Made by a program: the position numbers and the translations under genes
Part shown: in pieces, positions 7,790 through 64,000 of the stretch
Layout: each line of letters starts with the position of its first letter
How positions within the stretch are numbered: the stretch's first letter is position 1
Notes under the pieces: generated by a model
The model's input: only the letters and a program-made list of their open reading frames with translations
What the model was told of the DNA's origin: nothing
Databases searched by the model: none
NCBI GenBank assembly: GCA_934101795.1
Contig: CAKORY010000002.1
Span: forward strand, 25,200 to 89,199
Direction: 5' to 3'
Source: an uncultured Bacilli bacterium
GTDB taxonomy: Bacteria; Bacillota_I; Bacilli_A; RF39; UBA660
Length of the DNA stretch: 64,000 bases

Positions 7790-8034
7790 TTGAATTAAAC
7801 TAAGATTTATGATAAACTAGTTTTAATTAACGAAGAAGGAAAGAGTAGATATCATTCGTTTCATAGAGATTTTTTGGTTGGTGGAAAAGAAAAGATGAAG
7901 ATATTCGAACATGGCTCTGGAGTTAAAAGCGGGTAATTACGTTATAAATTTTAAGTTGCATGATAAATCATGAATTAAGGTGGTACCGCGGGTTATACTC
8001 GTCCTTAGTTTGTGGTTTTTTTATTGGAGGAAAT
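7790..8034 (+). promoter_or_regulatory. T-box riboswitch-like leader (candidate Met specifier) upstream of dut-metG
   Basis: near-consensus T-box sequence aattaaGGTGGTACCGCGGg at ~7972-7991 (consensus AATTAGGGTGGNACCGCGG), followed by T-run; AUGA candidates in the upstream region. Confidence 0.55.
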
Positions 8035-8532
8035 ATGAGAAAGTTTGAAAAAATAAGTTATCCTGAATTTGTTAAAGTTTTTGGAGATAATAAGACTTTA
8101 TATGATGATTATATGCTCCCTTTAAGAGGGACAAAATGTAGTGCAGGTTATGATTTTTTTGCCATAAAAGATTATGTTATTAAACCAAATGAGATTGTTA
8201 AGATACCAACTGGTTATAAGGCTACTTTTGAAAGTGATGAAATGCTTATGATCGTGGTAAGAAGTAGCATGGGTTTTAAATACAATATAAGACTTACTAA
8301 TCAAGTGGGAATTATTGAAAGTGATTACTATAATAATTCAGATAATGAAGGCCACATGTGGGTATGTTTACAAAATCATGGTGATAAGGAATATATAATA
8401 AATAAGGGAGATGCTTATGCCCAAGGGATTTTTGTTAAGTTTTTGATAACTGATGATGATAAAGCTGATACAATTAGAACTGGTGGTATAGGTAGTACAA
8501 ATAAAAAGAAAGAAGGAAATGAAAATGAATAA
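8035..8532 (+). CDS. dut: dUTP diphosphatase (trimeric dUTPase family)
   Basis: dUTPase motifs SAGYDFFA, GIIESDYY, RTGGIGSTN; start placed at ATG 8 nt after GGAGG (ORF track start 7960 lies inside the leader). Confidence 0.75.
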   Translation: MRKFEKISYPEFVKVFGDNKTLYDDYMLPLRGTKCSAGYDFFAIKDYVIKPNEIVKIPTGYKATFESDEMLMIVVRSSMGFKYNIRLTNQVGIIESDYYNNSDNEGHMWVCLQNHGDKEYIINKGDAYAQGIFVKFLITDDDKADTIRTGGIGSTNKKKEGNENE

Positions 8533-10057
8533 AAAATATTACATAACAACACCAATATATTATCCAAGTGCGAATTTTCATATTGGTCATTGTTATACAA
8601 CTATAATAGCTGATGCTATTGCAAGATATAAAAGATTAAATGGATATGATGTGTTTTTCCAAACTGGAACAGATGAACATGGTGCAAAAATTGAACAAAA
8701 AGCAAAGGAAGCTGGTGTTACTCCGAAAGAATATGTTGATGAAATAATATTAAATGCAAAAGATTTATGGAAAAGCTTAAATATTTCATATGATTATTTT
8801 ATTAGAACAACTGATGAACATCACGTAAAAGCAGTACAAAAAATATTTAAAAAATTGTATGATAAAGGTGATATTTACAAGGGCTCTTATGAAGGATTGT
8901 ATTGTGTTCCATGTGAGTCTTTTTGGACTGAAACTCAACTTGTAGATGGTAAATGTCCAGATTGTGGAAGAGATGTTAAAACTGTTACTGAAGAAGCATA
9001 CTTTTTTAAGTTATCTAAGTATCAAGATGCCTTAATCAAATTATATGATGAAAATCCTGAATTTATTTTACCTGTTTCAAGAAAGAATGAACTTGTAAAT
9101 AACTTTATTAAACCAGGACTTGAAGATTTATGTGTTTCAAGAACTTCAGTTAAATGGGGAATTCCTGTAGATTTTGATCCAAAGCATGTAATTTATGTAT
9201 GGATTGATGCTTTATCAAACTATATTACATCTTTAGGTTATCCAGATGAAAATGCTCCATTATTTAAAAAATATTGGCCTGCTGATTTACACTTAGTTGG
9301 TAAGGAAATAACAAGATTTCATGCTATTATTTGGCCAGCACTTCTTATGGCTTTAGATTTACCACTTCCAAAGCAAGTATTTGGTCATGGATGGCTTGTT
9401 ATAAATGGTGGTAAGATTTCTAAGTCACTTGGAAATTATAAAGATCCTAGAGAATATATTGATGCTTATGGTGTTGATGCAGTTAGATATTTTGCTTTAA
9501 GGGAAGTATCTTTTGGAAGTGATGGTGCTTTTTCTGAAGAAGCTTTAATTAATAGAACAAATGCAGATTTGGTAAATAACTTAGGTAATTTAGTTAATAG
9601 AACAATAAGTATGAGTCATAAATATTTTGATGGTGTGGTAGAAAATCCAAGAGTAAATGAAGAAATTGATAATGATTTAATTAGTGCTGTTACAAGTTTA
9701 AAAGCAAAAGTTGATGAAAAAATGGATGGTTTAAAGGTTAATGAAGCTTTAGAAGAAATATTTGAAGTTTTAAAAAGATGTAATAAATATATTGATGAAA
9801 CAACTCCATGGATACTTGCTAAAGATGAAACTAAACAAGATAGATTAAAAACTGTTTTATATAATATTTTAGAAAGTATCAGAGTATGTGCAATACTTCT
9901 TGAACCATTTATCAATATAACAAGTGAAAAAATATTAAATGAAATTAATACTAATGAAAGAAATATTGAAAGTATAAGTAAGTTTGGTAATTTAGAATGT
10001 GGAATTACATTAAATAAACCAGAAATTTTATTTAATAGGATTGAAATAAATGAATAA
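8519..10057 (+). CDS. metG: Methionyl-tRNA synthetase (short form lacking C-terminal tRNA-binding domain)
   Basis: HIGH motif (NFHIGHCYT), Zn knuckle CVPCE...CPDCG, KMSKS motif (KISKSLGN); 512 aa. Confidence 0.95.
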   Translation: MKMNKKYYITTPIYYPSANFHIGHCYTTIIADAIARYKRLNGYDVFFQTGTDEHGAKIEQKAKEAGVTPKEYVDEIILNAKDLWKSLNISYDYFIRTTDEHHVKAVQKIFKKLYDKGDIYKGSYEGLYCVPCESFWTETQLVDGKCPDCGRDVKTVTEEAYFFKLSKYQDALIKLYDENPEFILPVSRKNELVNNFIKPGLEDLCVSRTSVKWGIPVDFDPKHVIYVWIDALSNYITSLGYPDENAPLFKKYWPADLHLVGKEITRFHAIIWPALLMALDLPLPKQVFGHGWLVINGGKISKSLGNYKDPREYIDAYGVDAVRYFALREVSFGSDGAFSEEALINRTNADLVNNLGNLVNRTISMSHKYFDGVVENPRVNEEIDNDLISAVTSLKAKVDEKMDGLKVNEALEEIFEVLKRCNKYIDETTPWILAKDETKQDRLKTVLYNILESIRVCAILLEPFINITSEKILNEINTNERNIESISKFGNLECGITLNKPEILFNRIEINE

Positions 10058-57931: not shown

Positions 57932-58654
57932 ATGAAAAAGATAATAATTATTTTAGTTAGTTTATTAATGGTAACTGGATGTGTGAAAAAGGATGAGAAT
58001 CAGTTAATTATGGTTACTGAAGCTGGTTTTGCTCCGTATGAATATTATGAAAATGGAGAAGTTGTTGGTGTCGATGTTGATATTGCTAGGGAAATTGCAA
58101 AATATTTAGGTAAGACACTAGTTGTAAAAGATATCGCTTTTGATTCAATTATTAATGAAGTTAGGACTGGTAAAGCTGATTTTGGAGCTGCTGGTATTAG
58201 TTATAGTGAGGACAGAGCTAAGAATGTTGATTTTTCTATTAATTATGCTGTTAGTAAACAAGTGGTAATTGTAAATAATAATAGTAGTATTACAAATGTA
58301 AATGAGATAAGTAATAAAAAAATTGCTGTTCAACTTGGTAGTATAGCGGATACTTTTGTTACTGAAAGACATAAAAATGCAAATGTGGTAAGACAAAAGA
58401 AGTATTTGGCAGCGATTGAAGATTTGAAAACTGGTAAAGTGGATTGTGTTGTTATGGATGAGCTTCCTGCTAAAGAAATTGTTTCAAAAAATGAAGGTAT
58501 TAAGATACTTGATGGTAGTTTAACTAATGATTCTTATGGAATGATTGTTAAAAAAGGCAATAAAGAATTGTTAGATGCAATTAATACTGTGTTACAAAAT
58601 TTAAAAGATGAAGGTAAAATTGATGAATTTATTATAAAACATACAGAAAAGTAG
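57932..58654 (+). CDS. Amino-acid ABC transporter substrate-binding lipoprotein (SBP_bac_3)
   Basis: lipobox LMVTGC, family 3 SBP layout. Confidence 0.85.
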   Translation: MKKIIIILVSLLMVTGCVKKDENQLIMVTEAGFAPYEYYENGEVVGVDVDIAREIAKYLGKTLVVKDIAFDSIINEVRTGKADFGAAGISYSEDRAKNVDFSINYAVSKQVVIVNNNSSITNVNEISNKKIAVQLGSIADTFVTERHKNANVVRQKKYLAAIEDLKTGKVDCVVMDELPAKEIVSKNEGIKILDGSLTNDSYGMIVKKGNKELLDAINTVLQNLKDEGKIDEFIIKHTEK

Positions 58655-58663
58655 AGGTTTTAA

Positions 58664-59356
58664 ATGTTTAAAGATATTTATAATAGTTTTTATGATAGTG
58701 TTATTTATGATGACAGATATAAATTTATTTTGGAAGGGTTATTTAATACATTAATTATTGCTTTATTTGCGGTTTTTATTGGCTTTATTATTGGCATAAT
58801 TATTGCTATCATTCGTCATAATCATGATACAAATGGTAAATTAAAGATTTTTAATAAAATTGTTGTTTGGTATGTAAACATAATAAGGGGTACACCAGTT
58901 TTACTCCAACTTATGATAATTTATTATGTTATTTTTAAATCTAGTAATATTAGTGTTGTTATTGTTGGTATTCTTGCCTTTGGTCTTAATTCTGGAGCTT
59001 ATGTATCTGAAATTATTAGGTCTGGTTTAAATGCTATAGATAAAGGGCAAATGGAGGCTGGACTTGCTCTTGGTTTTAATTATGCAAAAACTATGAGATA
59101 TATTATTATGCCTCAAGGAGTAAGAAATGTTTTGCCAGCACTTGGTAATGAATTTATTACTTTAATTAAAGAAACTTCTACTGGAGCTTATATTGGTATT
59201 ATGGAACTTACCAAAGCTAGTGATATTATAGCATCAAGAACTTATGATTATTTTTTCCCGTTAATTATGATTGCTTGTATTTATTTACTTATTACTTTGG
59301 GACTTACTAATCTGGTAAATAAAATGGAGGTGAAACTTTCTAATGCTAAGTGTTAA
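58664..59356 (+). CDS. Amino-acid ABC transporter permease (His/Gln/Arg type)
   Basis: 5 TM, EAA-like loop (EAGLALGFNYAKTMRYIIMPQG). Confidence 0.85.
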   Translation: MFKDIYNSFYDSVIYDDRYKFILEGLFNTLIIALFAVFIGFIIGIIIAIIRHNHDTNGKLKIFNKIVVWYVNIIRGTPVLLQLMIIYYVIFKSSNISVVIVGILAFGLNSGAYVSEIIRSGLNAIDKGQMEAGLALGFNYAKTMRYIIMPQGVRNVLPALGNEFITLIKETSTGAYIGIMELTKASDIIASRTYDYFFPLIMIACIYLLITLGLTNLVNKMEVKLSNAKC

Positions 59357-60065
59357 ACATTTAAAGAAAAAATTTGATAAAATAAGTGTATTAAAAGATA
59401 TAAGTTTTGATGTAGAAAAAGGAGATATTTTAGCAATAGTTGGACCTTCAGGAAGTGGGAAAAGTACACTTCTTAGATGTTTAAATATGTTAGAAACACC
59501 AACAAGTGGAAAGATTGTTTTTGAAGGCGTTAATCTTACAAGTAAAGATGCTAATTTACCTTTAGTAAGAGAAAAAATGGGAATGGTTTTTCAACAATTT
59601 AATTTGTTCAATCATTTAACAGTTATGGAAAATCTTACTTTAGCTCCGATTAAACTTAAGGTTATGGGTGAAGGCAGTAGTAAAAGAAAAGCAACTGAAC
59701 TTTTGAAAATGATTGATTTATACGATAAAGCAAATAGTTATCCAAGTTCTTTATCGGGAGGGCAAAAACAAAGAATTGCAATTATTAGAACACTTATGAT
59801 GAATCCAGATATTATACTTTTTGATGAACCTACGAGTGCGTTAGATCCATTGATGGTTGGAGAAGTACTTGATTTAATAAAAAGACTTGCAAATGATAAT
59901 AAAACAATGATTATTGTATCTCATGAACTTAATTTCGTTAAAAACATTGCAAGCAAGGTGTTATTCTTGGATGATGGAAAAGTTAAATTTTATGGAAGTA
60001 ATAAAGAATTTTTTGCTAGTAAAAATAAAGATATAAAAGAATTTCTAGATAAAGTCAATAATTGA
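59343..60065 (+). CDS. Amino-acid ABC transporter ATP-binding protein (GlnQ-like)
   Basis: Walker A GPSGSGKST, signature LSGGQKQRIAIIRT, Walker B ILFDEPTSALD. Confidence 0.9.
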   Translation: MLSVKHLKKKFDKISVLKDISFDVEKGDILAIVGPSGSGKSTLLRCLNMLETPTSGKIVFEGVNLTSKDANLPLVREKMGMVFQQFNLFNHLTVMENLTLAPIKLKVMGEGSSKRKATELLKMIDLYDKANSYPSSLSGGQKQRIAIIRTLMMNPDIILFDEPTSALDPLMVGEVLDLIKRLANDNKTMIIVSHELNFVKNIASKVLFLDDGKVKFYGSNKEFFASKNKDIKEFLDKVNN

Positions 60066-60119
60066 TTGAAAATATAAAATTAGTCTGTTATAATTAAGGT
60101 AGAATAAGGAGAGGATTAA

Positions 60120-62435
60120 ATGAATGCAATTAATGTAAGAAGTGAAATTGGACCACTTAAAAAAGTACTTTTGCATAGACCTGGTAATGAACTTTTAAAT
60201 TTAACACCAGATTCTTTGGGTAGATTACTTTTTGATGATATACCTTTTTTACCTGATGCTCAAGCTGAACATGATGAGTTTGCTAGAGTATTAAAAGAAA
60301 ATGGTATTGAAGTAGTATATCTTGAAGATTTAATGGCTAGTGTACTTGAATTAAGTGGAGATATTGAAGATAAATTTATTAGACAATTTATCTATGAAGC
60401 GGGGATAACTACTCCGAAGTATAAAAATTTAGTATATAGTTATCTAAAGAGTTTTAATAATAAAAAAGAACTTGTTTTAAAAACTATGGAAGGGATAAAA
60501 CTTGAAGAAATTAGTAGAGCTAAAAGAGAAGTTGAAAAGTCTTTAGTTGACTTAGTTAGTGAAGAATCAGATTTTTTAGCAGATCCGATGCCAAACCTTT
60601 ATTTTACAAGAGATCCATTTGCTAGTGCTGGTAATGGAGTAATTTTAAATAAAATGTATTCTGTTACTAGAAGTAGAGAAACTATTTATGCTGAATATAT
60701 CTTTAATTATCATCCAGATTTTAAAGATAGTTTAGATAAATATTATGATAGATATTTACCATATCATATTGAAGGTGGAGATGTCTTAAATTTAAATAGT
60801 CATATTTTAGCTGTTGGTATTTCTCAAAGAACTGAAGCTGCAGCAATAGATGAACTAGCTAAGAATTGTTTTAGAGATCCTAATTGTAAGATTGATACAA
60901 TACTTGCATTTAATATACCTGAGTCAAGAGCTTTCATGCACTTAGATACTGTATTTACTCAAATTGATTATGATAAATTTACATATCATCCAGGTATTAT
61001 GGATACACTTCAAGTTTTTGAAATTACTGAAGGGGATATTCCTGATTCTGATGAAGATTTAAATGTTAAAGAAGTAAATGGTAGTTTGGAAGAAATTCTT
61101 GAAAAATACTTAGGTAGAGAAATTGAAGTTATTCCATGTGCTGGTGGGGAAAAGATTTCATCAGAAAGAGAACAATGGAATGATGGAACAAATACTTTAT
61201 GTATTGCTCCGGGTGTTGTAGTTGTTTATGATAGAAACAATATTACTAATAATATTTTAAGAGAACATGGTCTTAAAGTAATTGAAGTAAGTAGTGCTGA
61301 ACTTTCGCGTGGTAGAGGTGGCCCTAGATGTATGAGTATGCCACTTATTCGTGAAGATATTGAAGAATTAGAACCTAATAAAGAAGAAATGCTTGAAACT
61401 ATAAAGATTGAAGATTTTATAAAGGTTCAAAATATAAATAAAATTGATTTGAGAGGTAGAAATTTCCTAAAACTTCTTGATTATACACCAGAAGAAATAA
61501 GATATTTACTTGATTTATCTAAAGATTTAAAAGATAAAAAGAGAAGAGGTATTGAACATAGATACTTAAGTGGTAAAAATATTGTTTTACTTTTTGAAAA
61601 AACTTCAACTAGAACTAGATGTGCTTTTGAAGTTGCTGGTATGGATTTGGGTATGGGTGTAACTTACTTAGATCCTGGAGCTTCTCAAATGGGTAAAAAA
61701 GAATCAATTAGTGATACTGCGAAAGTTCTTGGTAGAATGTATGATGGTATTGAATATCGTGGATATGACCAAGCTATTGTGGAAGAACTTGCTGAAAATG
61801 CTGGTGTTCCTGTTTGGAATGGTTTAACTACTGAATTCCATCCAACACAAATGCTTGCTGATATTTTAACTGTTGAAGAAAATTTTGGACATTTAAAAGG
61901 CATTAAACTTGTTTTTATGGGTGATGCTAGAAATAATGTTGCTAATTCACTTATGGTTGTATGTAGTAAGATGGGAATGCATTTTGTTGCTTGTGGACCT
62001 AAGAGCTTATGGCCAAATGAAGAATTAATTGAAGAATGCAAGGAAATTTGTAAGACAACTGGTGGATTAATCGAAATGAATGAAAACGTTTTAGAAGCTA
62101 CCCGTGATGCTGATGTTATTTATACTGATGTTTGGGTTTCTATGGGAGAACCTGATGATGTATGGAATGAAAGAATCAATTTACTTAAACCTTATCAAGT
62201 AAATATGGATGTTATGAATAATGCAAGACCTGATGCTATATTCTTACATTGTCTTCCATCATTCCACAATTTAAAAACAACTATTGGTAAAGATATATAT
62301 AGTAAATTTGGTTTAAAAGAAATGGAAGTAACTGATGAAGTATTTAATTTACCTTGTTCTAAAGTATTTGATCAAGCTGAAAATAGATTACATACTATTA
62401 AAGCTGTCGTTTATGCAACAATGAGGGAAGATTAA
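60120..62435 (+). CDS. arcAB: Fused arginine deiminase (ArcA) - catabolic ornithine carbamoyltransferase (ArcB), single 771-aa ORF
   Basis: N-part: ADI motifs incl. C-terminal catalytic GGPRCMSMP; ~26-aa linker; C-part: OTC STRTR carbamoyl-phosphate motif, HPTQ, HCLP; no stop between domains. Confidence 0.8.
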
Positions 62436-63371
62436 ATGAGTAAAATAGTTATTGCCTTAGGTGGTAATGCCTTAGGTAAAAATCCTAAAGAACAAATGAA
62501 TTTACTTCAAAATGTTTCTAAAATAATTGTGAAACTTGTTAAAGATGGTAATGATGTTGTTATAACGCATGGGAATGGTCCTCAAGTAGGGCAAATAGCA
62601 CTTGCTATGGAGTATGCAGCTTCAAATGGAGCTGGTACTCCTTATATGCCATTTCCTGAGTGTGGGAGTATGAGTCAAGGTTATATTGGTTATGGTTTAG
62701 AACAATGCCTTTTAAATGAGATGAAAAAGGAAAACGTTCAAAAAAAATGCGTAGCCTTAATAACACAGGTTCTAGTTGATGCAAAAGATAGTGCTTTTTC
62801 TAATCCAACTAAACCAATTGGAATGTTTTATAGTAAGGAAGAGGCTATAAAGCAGGAAAAAGAAAAAGGTTATACTTTTGTAGAAGATGCTGGACGTGGG
62901 TATCGAAGAGTTGTGCCATCTCCGATGCCAATAGATATCATTGAAAAAGAAACTATTAAAGAACTTTTTCAAAATGGTTCACTTGTAATTGCTGCTGGTG
63001 GTGGGGGTATTCCCGTTATAAAAGATGGGGATAACTTAAAAGGTGTAGAAGCTGTTATTGATAAAGATAAAACTGCTGCATTACTCGCTAAGTTAATTGG
63101 TGCTGATACGCTTCTTATTTTAACTAGTGTTGATAAAGTGTCAATACATTACAATACTGATTTTCAAATTGATTTGGATGTGTTAAATGTTCAAGAAGCT
63201 TTGAAGTATATTTCTAATAATGAGTTTGCTAAAGGAAGTATGCTTCCTAAAATAGAAGCTTGTTTAGATTTTGTTAAGGGTACTAATAATAGAGCAATTA
63301 TAGGTTCGCTAGAAAAAGCAGTTGATGCTATAAATGGTGATTCTGGCACAATTATAAAGGAGGAAAAATAA
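62436..63371 (+). CDS. arcC: Carbamate kinase
   Basis: MSKIVIALGGNALG N-terminus, 311 aa. Confidence 0.9.
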   Translation: MSKIVIALGGNALGKNPKEQMNLLQNVSKIIVKLVKDGNDVVITHGNGPQVGQIALAMEYAASNGAGTPYMPFPECGSMSQGYIGYGLEQCLLNEMKKENVQKKCVALITQVLVDAKDSAFSNPTKPIGMFYSKEEAIKQEKEKGYTFVEDAGRGYRRVVPSPMPIDIIEKETIKELFQNGSLVIAAGGGGIPVIKDGDNLKGVEAVIDKDKTAALLAKLIGADTLLILTSVDKVSIHYNTDFQIDLDVLNVQEALKYISNNEFAKGSMLPKIEACLDFVKGTNNRAIIGSLEKAVDAINGDSGTIIKEEK

Positions 63372-63374
63372 AAT

Positions 63375-64000
63375 GGCAAAGGCTAAGAAAAAGGCTAAAC
63401 AAATGTTATCGTCTTTTTCAATAATAATGATTTTAATATTTGGCCTTGGAATATTATCTCATTTACTTCCAAATGCTAAGTTTGTTGGTGATACTTTAGT
63501 TGATGGAAGTGGTACTGTTGGAGCAACTCTTTCTCAAGTTTTAATGTCTCCGATTCAAGGTTTTGAAAATGCTATAGATGTTAGTATTTTCATTATGATG
63601 CTGGGTGGTATGCTTGCGGTTATTAATAAAACTGGGGCATTAGAAACTGGTATCAAAGTTTTAGTTCATAAACTAAAAGGTAAAGAAATTTGGTTGATTC
63701 CAATTCTTATGACAGTATTTTCTGTTTGTGGTACAACTTATGGTATGCTTGAAGAAACTGTTGGATTTTATGTTTTATTATCTGCTACTATGATGGCTGC
63801 TGGTATGGATCCACTTGTTGGTTCTGCGGTTATTCTTCTTGGGGCTGGTAGTGGATGTTTGGGTTCAACAATTAACCCATTTGCAACAGGTGTTGCTTTA
63901 AGTGCTCTTCCAAAAGGGATAACAGCTGATAATGGTTTTGTTATTCTAATTGCAACATTCTTATGGCTTACAACATTAATAGTATCTATTCTATTTGTTA
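63375..64000 (+). CDS. YfcC/DcuC-family membrane transporter (putative arginine/ornithine antiporter of ADI locus), 3'-truncated by window end
   Basis: multi-TM protein following arcC; family-level resemblance only; ORF runs off window. Confidence 0.5.

Follow-up and report, generated by a model that had tools for sequence, protein, structure and literature searches.

The arginine deiminase (ADI) pathway is the textbook three-enzyme route to fermentative ATP and acid tolerance, and its third step, catalysed by carbamate kinase, converts carbamoyl phosphate and ADP into ATP, CO2 and NH3. The equilibrium of ornithine carbamoyltransferase (OTC), the second enzyme, strongly favours citrulline synthesis. 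ADIs are usually dimers or tetramers, as in the structures from M. arginini and P. aeruginosa. It is common in evolution for enzymes that act consecutively in a pathway to become fused. Here we describe a gene in which arcA and arcB, encoding ADI and OTC, are joined in one open reading frame (ORF). It lies at 60120..62435 of a 64,000-nucleotide stretch, referred to below as the window, of contig CAKORY010000002.1 (assembly GCA_934101795.1) from an uncultured Bacilli bacterium.

The catalytic unit of OTC is a homotrimer, and the dodecamer contacts of some catabolic OTCs (cOTCs) use helix alpha1 and the termini (PMC3474736). In CAD, an arrangement of dihydroorotase (DHOase), linker and aspartate carbamoyltransferase (ATCase) gives a hexameric core (PMC8508918). 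For Pyrococcus furiosus, a channelling complex of OTC and carbamate kinase was proposed, as far as PMC3474736 describes it in citing Massant & Glansdorff 2004. A natural ADI-OTC fusion was found nowhere described in the literature searched, and the fused proteins reported below stand nameless in their source databases. We predict, with a probability of roughly 80%, that the ORF in the window encodes a genuine bifunctional ADI-cOTC enzyme of the ADI pathway. The fusion is solidly established and occurs fairly widely in gut metagenomes. Its two domains belong to well-known families, in which they are unremarkable; the architecture is what is unusual.

The fused reading frame and its domains

According to the ORF listing of the window, the gene is a single, uninterrupted ORF of 771 codons that starts with ATG and stops with TAA. 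The region 61340-61450, which covers the junction, was read in the window sequence and contained neither stop codons nor frame changes. The gene is composed of the following parts:

60120..62435, + strand: arcA-arcB fusion ORF, 771 aa, calculated 87.8 kDa, pI 4.9
60120..61361, + strand: ADI domain, aa 1-414 (Pfam ADI, TIGR01078, 4bof alignment)
61362..61445, + strand: inter-domain linker, aa 415-442 (28 aa), between the native ends of the PDB homologues
61446..62435, + strand: OTC domain, aa 443-771 plus TAA (OTCace_N, OTCace, TIGR00658, 3upd)

The N-terminal part matched Pfam ADI at aa 35-411 with all 377 of the 377 profile positions covered, and the NCBIfam model arcA TIGR01078 over aa 4-414 with 516.5 bits, above the curated equivalog cut-off of 489.1. 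Residues 3-414 aligned end to end with the Streptococcus pyogenes ADI structure 4bof (E=1.3e-126), and the native C-terminus of 4bof (...REDI) corresponded to aa 414 of the fusion. In the C-terminal part both carbamoyltransferase domains were there, OTCace_N at aa 447-587 and OTCace at aa 593-766, and the NCBIfam OTC model TIGR00658 scored 416 bits, above its curated equivalog cut-off of 280.85. The alignment of aa 437-768 with Vibrio vulnificus OTC 3upd (E=4e-129) began at the native N-terminus of 3upd. Because the ADI part ends at the 4bof C-terminus and the OTC part begins at the 3upd N-terminus, aa 415-442 were taken as the linker.

Other carbamoyltransferase families were tried for the C-terminal domain and rejected. 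Putrescine carbamoyltransferase TIGR04384 scored 281 against a cut-off of 500 and ATCase TIGR00670 scored 131 against 237, and the NCBIfam models for N-acetylornithine and YgeW carbamoyltransferases were far under their cut-offs. The OTC part matched the catabolic enzyme 1dxh (1.4e-115) and the anabolic enzyme 1akm (1.2e-112) about equally, thus sequence alone does not separate the two roles. The context, in which the domain is joined to ADI and followed by arcC, points to a catabolic role.

The catalytic motifs of ADI were found as FTRD (D165), EGGD (E218), HLD (H274 and D276) and GGPRC (C404, nt 61329-61331). The roles of these Cys-His-Asp/Glu motif residues are presumably those assigned from the ADI structures 1rxx, 1lxy and 4bof. 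In the OTC part, the motifs were STRTR (496-500), HPTQ (574-577), DxxxSMG (670-676) and HCLP (710-713). In an alignment of 21 fused homologues (alignment A1), the five ADI residues D165, E218, H274, D276 and C404 and the OTC motifs STRTR, HPTQ, SMG and HCLP were invariant.

The original prediction, made from the letters of the window, had placed arcA and arcB in one polypeptide, and the single 771-aa ORF, with both domains complete and above their cut-offs and with recurrence in 18 species genomes (described below), bears this out. The ADI catalytic motif (GGPRCMSMP, aa 400-408) and STRTR, HPTQ and HCLP were also where it had put them. Its linker of about 26 aa exists and is in frame, and the length was corrected to 28 aa (415-442) by the ends of 4bof and 3upd.

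The linker of the window protein is 43% charged with a net charge of -4, and glycine is absent. Linkers of the fused genes were in general 39-54% charged and lacked glycine. They shared a semi-conserved core, [IL][KR].E[DE].[IVK]K[VIK], which took the form IK.EDFIKV in one subclade and LIKQEDVKKI in the other. The position of the ancestral arcB Met1 is occupied in the window fusion by Ile442 (ATT). An origin of the linker as a duplicate of the arcA 3' end was considered, since SMCLIKQEDV resembles SMPLIREDI, and was rejected: Smith-Waterman scores did not exceed those of shuffles, and the best matches of linkers in their own proteins were not at the ADI C-terminus.

Recurrence of the fusion and states of the junction

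A search of 5.8 billion clustered proteins, of which the best 120 matches were examined, gave at least 120 fused protein clusters. These were 747-778 aa long, carried the same three Pfam domains, were 86-99% identical to the window protein and stemmed from NCBI, ENA, JGI and Logan assemblies. Thus the fused ADI-OTC proteins that the original prediction had advised looking for do exist. The exact sequence of one 773-aa variant, P0121, was indexed in 746 blocks and is known from more than 500 contigs, of which one exceeds 1 Mb, and its 90% cluster had 630 members. The exact window protein had no match in public assemblies, and near-identical proteins were used for the comparison of gene context.

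Genomes were scanned with one genome per species (185,579 species), which gave 340 related loci, and the best 80 (numbered with L below) were kept. For nearly all of these 80 loci tblastn reported residues 1-771 as matched, so the continuity of the ORF was checked locus by locus. Truly fused genes were present in 18 of the 80 species-level genomes (L001-L015, L021, L024 and L031). In the other 62, arcA and arcB were split by a stop codon, by a change of frame or by a large gap, as expected from the statement in the original prediction that the two are normally separate, adjacent genes. Apparently fused matches at 49-79% identity (Lentilactobacillus, Eubacteriaceae, Sphaerochaetaceae and others) were rejected, as tblastn had joined two genes; within the best 80, all matches of 79% identity or less had an intervening stop or a different frame between arcA and arcB.

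The 1.84 billion representatives at 50% identity were also searched exhaustively with HMMER. No protein with both ADI and OTC domains was among the 150 best matches inspected, where a fusion contained in those representatives would rank at the top because a protein with both domains outscores single-domain matches. In this set the query's own fused family lacks a fused representative, and young fusions within unfused families may be hidden. The HMMER census is incomplete, and its outcome is compatible with ADI-OTC fusions that are rare and recent. Some long representatives were considered as fusions and discarded: P0220 is an OTC with a 2OG-Fe dioxygenase, P0198 is a chimera, and P0216 and P0221 are ADI with an N-terminal extension. 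The latter two (1005 aa and 1067 aa) are ADI homologues whose extensions of about 540-790 aa contain several partial ADI matches, and they have no OTC domain.

When the junctions of the related loci were compared, three states were recognised. In the commonest one, arcA ends with ...MSMPL.RED[IL] and a stop, the arcB ATG (MNL/MDL.GRNFL) follows 5-10 nt later, and the ribosome-binding site (RBS) of arcB, AGGGAGGA, is embedded in the final arcA codons. In the second state, termed EXT and found in ten genomes of a neighbouring clade (L042-L046, L048, L050, L053, L056 and L059; e.g. L043:7242-7350), the arcA stop is lost and 12-36 charged residues after ...RED[IL] run over the arcB start in another frame. 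The overlap of arcA and arcB there is about 30-90 nt, and arcB retains its ATG and an AAAGGA RBS, thus EXT loci have two overlapping genes. In the third state, the fusion, 25-45 residues after RED[IL] lead into [IPVF]DLRGRNFL, and the arcB Met codon is replaced by an Ile, Pro, Val or Phe codon. The distances between domain ends in the fused genes were 75, 84, 90, 96, 99 and 135 nt, six lengths that are all multiples of three.

The sister RF39-like genomes with unfused genes (L038-L040, L047, L052, L064 etc.) have ADIs 76-89% identical to that of the fusion and resemble it in neighbourhood logic and in the arcA terminus ...MSMPL.RED[IL]. They differ in that the arcA stop stands 5-10 nt before the arcB ATG and the RBS lies in the arcA end, whereas the fusions have neither signal and are longer by 75-135 nt. 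The EXT clade shares with the fusion the loss of the arcA stop and a charged stretch after RED[IL]; its tail is, however, in another frame and the arcB start is retained, while the fusion has one frame and the arcB start is gone. In L016 (7243-7251) and L017 (7003-7011) we observed arcA and arcB in the same frame, split by a lone stop (TGA in L016, TAA in L017) that is followed by one codon and then the arcB ATG (...REDI*RMDLYGRNF...). A single point mutation or stop read-through at this place would yield a linker-less fusion.

The junction was scanned in 19 fused genes. The stop or frameshift that the original prediction had advised looking for was found in none of their linkers, all of which are multiples of three in length, as in the window itself. 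Its other caution concerned an internal RBS and start. Neither the linkers nor the OTC starts of the 19 genes had a conserved start codon with a Shine-Dalgarno (SD) sequence, therefore the OTC domain depends on translation from the arcA start. The only conserved start candidate at the junction, a weak one, was ATG405/407 in GGPRCMSMP, with GAGGTG 11 nt upstream. The same context occurs in unfused arcA genes, because the RGRGGPRCM codons force it.

Selection was estimated with pairwise Nei-Gojobori dN/dS (ratio of nonsynonymous to synonymous substitution rates) among the fused genes. For the ADI part the ratio was 0.04-0.11, for the OTC part 0.075-0.18, and for the linker about 0.45-1.6 at a dS of 0.4-2. 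Both enzyme domains are thus under strong purifying selection, and the linker sequence is nearly free to vary. Conservation of the frame is required because the OTC domain lost its own start. It suggests that the OTC domain is needed and expressed via the fusion, and does not by itself show that the fusion is advantageous.

In a neighbour-joining tree of the concatenated ADI and OTC domains, fused genes were found in two adjacent subclades, B, which includes the window (100% bootstrap), and A (67.5%), and together with the unfused L038-L040 they formed a clade with 89% bootstrap. A single origin of the fusion, in a gut lineage of RF39 (family UBA660-like), is the simplest reading and is probable. 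The EXT clade was monophyletic (100%) and was sister to the fused clade in 0% of bootstraps, therefore it is an independent event. The fusion is conserved but evolutionarily young.

Neighbouring genes and host

The window contains the following features around the fused gene:

57932-58654, + strand: lipoprotein, substrate-binding protein (SBP) of an ABC importer (SBP_bac_3 plus lipobox; Pfam)
58664-59356, + strand: ABC permease (BPD_transp_1; Pfam)
59343-60065, + strand: ABC ATPase (ABC_tran; Pfam)
60066..60094, + strand: promoter-like TTGAAA-17 nt-TATAAT with extended TG (TGnTATAAT), 11/12 positions in a consensus scan
60106..60114, + strand: Shine-Dalgarno AAGGAGAGG of the fused gene (sequence reading; SD scoring)
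62436..63371, + strand: arcC, carbamate kinase, 311 aa (TIGR00746, 374.6 bits vs cut-off 358.25)
63373..64000, + strand: YfcC/DcuC-family membrane transporter, 5' part, running off the window end (DcuC PF03606, E=2.3e-32)

Directly upstream of the fusion, 57932..60065 is a three-gene polar amino-acid ABC importer consisting of the SBP, permease and ATPase. The top NCBIfam match of the SBP was the Lys/Arg/Orn SBP subfamily TIGR01096 with 122.8 bits, below the cut-off of 256. By its consensus match, the promoter-like element at 60066..60094 is a predicted promoter of the fused gene. SD scoring placed AAGGAG 8 nt ahead of the fusion ATG, which is a strong SD. The ATG of arcC abuts the TAA of the fusion, which suggests that arcC is translationally coupled to it. 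The full-length 481-aa orthologue of the transporter in L084 matched NF008611, "putative basic amino acid antiporter YfcC", with 178.9 bits. This is far below the cut-off of 500, and the carrier is a plausible candidate for an arginine/ornithine exchanger. The ABC importer ahead of the fusion and the arcC and YfcC-type genes behind it are the neighbours that the original prediction had named. No second copy of ADI or OTC was found in the 64-kb window.

The gene order in independent metagenome contigs was ABC importer, fusion, arcC, the 481-aa YfcC-type carrier, pgk, tpi, spo0A and iPGM. Some 4.4-5.7 kb downstream of the fusion, the YfcC-type carrier and pgk of L081-L086 flank a conserved ORF of 410-416 aa that runs on the opposite strand and has no Pfam match (e.g. 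L084:14844-16094, minus strand). The presence of spo0A a few genes beyond this ORF indicates that the genome-reduced RF39 bacteria retain the sporulation master regulator. At L084:4434-6552 and L085:3927-6046, an insertion with an AbiEii-type toxin gene (PF08843) was observed between a LysM amidase and a CmpB-like gene. This site is upstream of the ABC importer and is occupied by a serine recombinase in L081 and L082 instead; it is a variable island beside the arc locus among strains.

The nearest genomes were metagenome-assembled genomes of uncultured "Bacilli/Tenericutes" from the gut, including Firmicutes bacterium CAG:460, Clostridium sp. CAG:609 and Firmicutes bacterium CAG:884. The genus CAG-460 belongs to the family UBA660 of the order RF39, which comprises genome-reduced Bacilli, and arginine-degradation genes of UBA660/CAG-460 (RF39) bacteria are reported as expressed in metatranscriptomes of the chicken caecum (PMC13155120). 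Reassignments of AGG to Met and CGG to Trp are known in the related order RFN20, and RF39 is reported to read UGA as stop (PMC8629427). An alternative code was considered for the fused genes and rejected: AGG, CGG and CGA were found at conserved Arg columns and in-frame TGA was absent, therefore the standard code (table 11) fits.

The G+C content of the window was 27%. About 54 of its 61 ORFs of at least 150 aa were on the + strand, and the 64-kb window contained no tRNA genes. The strand bias, the absence of tRNA genes and the 27% G+C are in keeping with a Bacilli chromosome that is small and has a strong strand bias. A T-box leader (RF00230, 106 bits vs a gathering score of 93) was observed at window positions 7824-8009 (+), at the start of ORFs 7960-8532 and 8519-10057.

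Proposed function, alternative readings and relation to known systems

In the scheme that we propose, the N-terminal ADI domain would convert arginine to citrulline and ammonia, and the C-terminal catabolic OTC domain would split citrulline with phosphate (phosphorolysis) into ornithine and carbamoyl phosphate. Carbamate kinase, whose gene arcC is probably coupled to the fusion in translation, would then make ATP, and the downstream YfcC-type carrier would likely exchange arginine and ornithine. The ancestor would have had a tightly coupled arcA-stop/arcB-start junction, and the arcA stop, along with the RBS and ATG of arcB, would have been lost in the fusion event, which left a charged tether of 25-45 aa. 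As a pay-off, ADI would be kept next to the cOTC step, which is thermodynamically unfavourable, and in an obligatory 1:1 stoichiometry with it. Trimeric OTC and dimeric or tetrameric ADI may together form a cross-linked higher oligomer, for example a hexamer of D3 symmetry that resembles the DHOase-linker-ATCase core of CAD. We infer that the product would be made and kept as one chain of about 88 kDa with both activities. The fused frame shows covalent co-localisation and 1:1 stoichiometry and no more; the channelling of citrulline that the original prediction had drawn from it is not supported by these data and stays a hypothesis.

Any single fused ORF could be suspected of being a sequencing or assembly artefact, or a pseudogene with a missed stop, a frameshift or one dead domain. 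This suspicion draws on the general prior that one error can merge adjacent in-frame genes. The fusion recurs, however, in hundreds of independent contigs that different projects and assemblers produced, and 18 species carry it with six linker lengths, all in frame. A pseudogene is further opposed by the strong purifying selection on both domains and the invariant catalytic residues. The fused architecture is not an assembly artefact, and we consider this explanation hardly credible. The continuous ORF might alternatively give two separate proteins, either by internal initiation at M405/M407 or at an in-frame ATG or TTG near the junction, or by proteolysis of the linker, which is charged and probably exposed. 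GAGGTG is present 11 nt upstream of ATG405 in most fused genes, and some genes have ATG424, or a TTG at F-L of GRNFL with GAGGT 9 nt upstream. The M405 context is, however, dictated by the universal RGRGGPRCM codons, equally in unfused arcA, and is not an evolved signal. ATG424 has no SD and is absent from L001-L003 and others, and TTG450 is absent from the window. The loss of the ancestral arcB ATG and its AGGGAGGA RBS would be unexpected if separate translation of OTC were still needed. We therefore consider two separate proteins improbable.

A stronger contender accepts the fusion as real and holds it to be selectively neutral: the stop and start signals would have been lost by chance where the gap between arcA and arcB was 5-10 nt, there would be no channelling or kinetic gain, and the fused state would persist only since the OTC domain has no start of its own. 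The linker, with its dN/dS of about 0.45-1.6, varies freely in length and sequence; sister lineages with 84-89% identical enzymes hold separate genes; and the independent EXT clade lost the arcA stop without fusing, which indicates that the junction is mutationally labile. Free diffusion of citrulline would make proximity channelling via a flexible tether weak in principle. On the other side, the fusion has lasted while at least 18 species-level genomes diverged, to a dS of up to about 1-2, and the linker core K.E[DE]..K was kept in both subclades, neither of which is decisive. We regard neutrality as a real possibility that falls short of even odds. An adaptive reading of the fusion, in which ADI dimers and OTC trimers on a charged tether would build a closed CAD-core-like particle (D3 hexamer or larger) and raise local citrulline at the cOTC sites, is doubtful in our estimate. 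If it were true, the particle would help to drive the unfavourable phosphorolysis and raise the ATP yield per arginine in genome-reduced RF39 gut bacteria, and the ADI pathway would have a natural metabolon of a new architecture.

Several points weigh against a bifunctional enzyme that arose once and is of use as a fusion. The SD-like GAGGTG 11 nt before M405 may in principle start a separate OTC with a 38-aa leader. Given the near-neutral linker and the close relatives with separate genes, adaptation is not required to explain the fusion. That all fused genes are monophyletic was the point estimate, with a bootstrap of just 48.5%, and a reversal or a second origin of the fusion is possible. 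When a donor of the linker DNA was sought with blastn-short against the window and the 80 loci, only orthologous linkers of close fused relatives were obtained. An AlphaFold2 monomer model from the 21-sequence alignment (86-99% identity) had a mean pLDDT of 38.9 and was unusable; no structural claim was drawn from it. Finally, the reading is built on sequence, and the size, activities, oligomeric state and kinetic advantage are predictions.

We regard the bifunctional ADI-cOTC enzyme as moderately interesting and not surprising, because fusions of consecutive enzymes are common. Its hosts, of the RF39/UBA660 type, are abundant, uncultured and genome-reduced bacteria in human and animal guts. 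A natural covalent ADI-cOTC is a ready test case for whether physical coupling helps an unfavourable second step. The presence of tight coupling, an overlapping arcA extension and fusion side by side in close relatives gives an unusually clear snapshot of the change from junction to fusion. Annotation pipelines should label the fused protein as bifunctional, and a single-chain ADI-OTC may interest engineers of arginine-depleting or ammonia/ATP-generating modules.

Compared with the canonical arcA-arcB-arcC(-arcD) operons of Pseudomonas aeruginosa, Streptococcus and Mycoplasma penetrans (PMC3474736), the locus keeps the set of three enzymes and their order. The fusion domains are orthologous to the stand-alone enzymes (4bof, 3upd, 1dxh), and arcC and a putative basic amino-acid exchanger follow. 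Unlike them, the fusion has ArcA and ArcB in one chain with a 25-45-aa linker, and its arcB has no start codon or RBS. The exchanger candidate is of the YfcC/DcuC type, whereas the canonical operon has an ArcD of the APC family. The cOTCs of P. aeruginosa and M. penetrans are dodecamers, an assembly that an N-terminal ADI would probably block, judging from the interface given in PMC3474736; ADI-OTC may instead cross-link trimers via ADI dimers in a CAD-core-like manner.

Proteins of the CAD/URA2 type are similar to the fusion in having a C-terminal transcarbamoylase-fold domain on a flexible linker to a self-oligomerising pathway enzyme. They differ in serving pyrimidine synthesis with another partner domain and another intermediate; the two arose by non-homologous events, and the ADI-OTC assembly is hypothetical. 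The P. furiosus complex, as far as the citing source presents it, resembles the fusion in that physical coupling of consecutive carbamoyl-phosphate enzymes was proposed for the hand-over of an intermediate. By the same account that complex is non-covalent, links the second step to the third and shields labile carbamoyl phosphate, whereas the fusion is covalent and couples steps 1 and 2, between which the intermediate is the stable citrulline.

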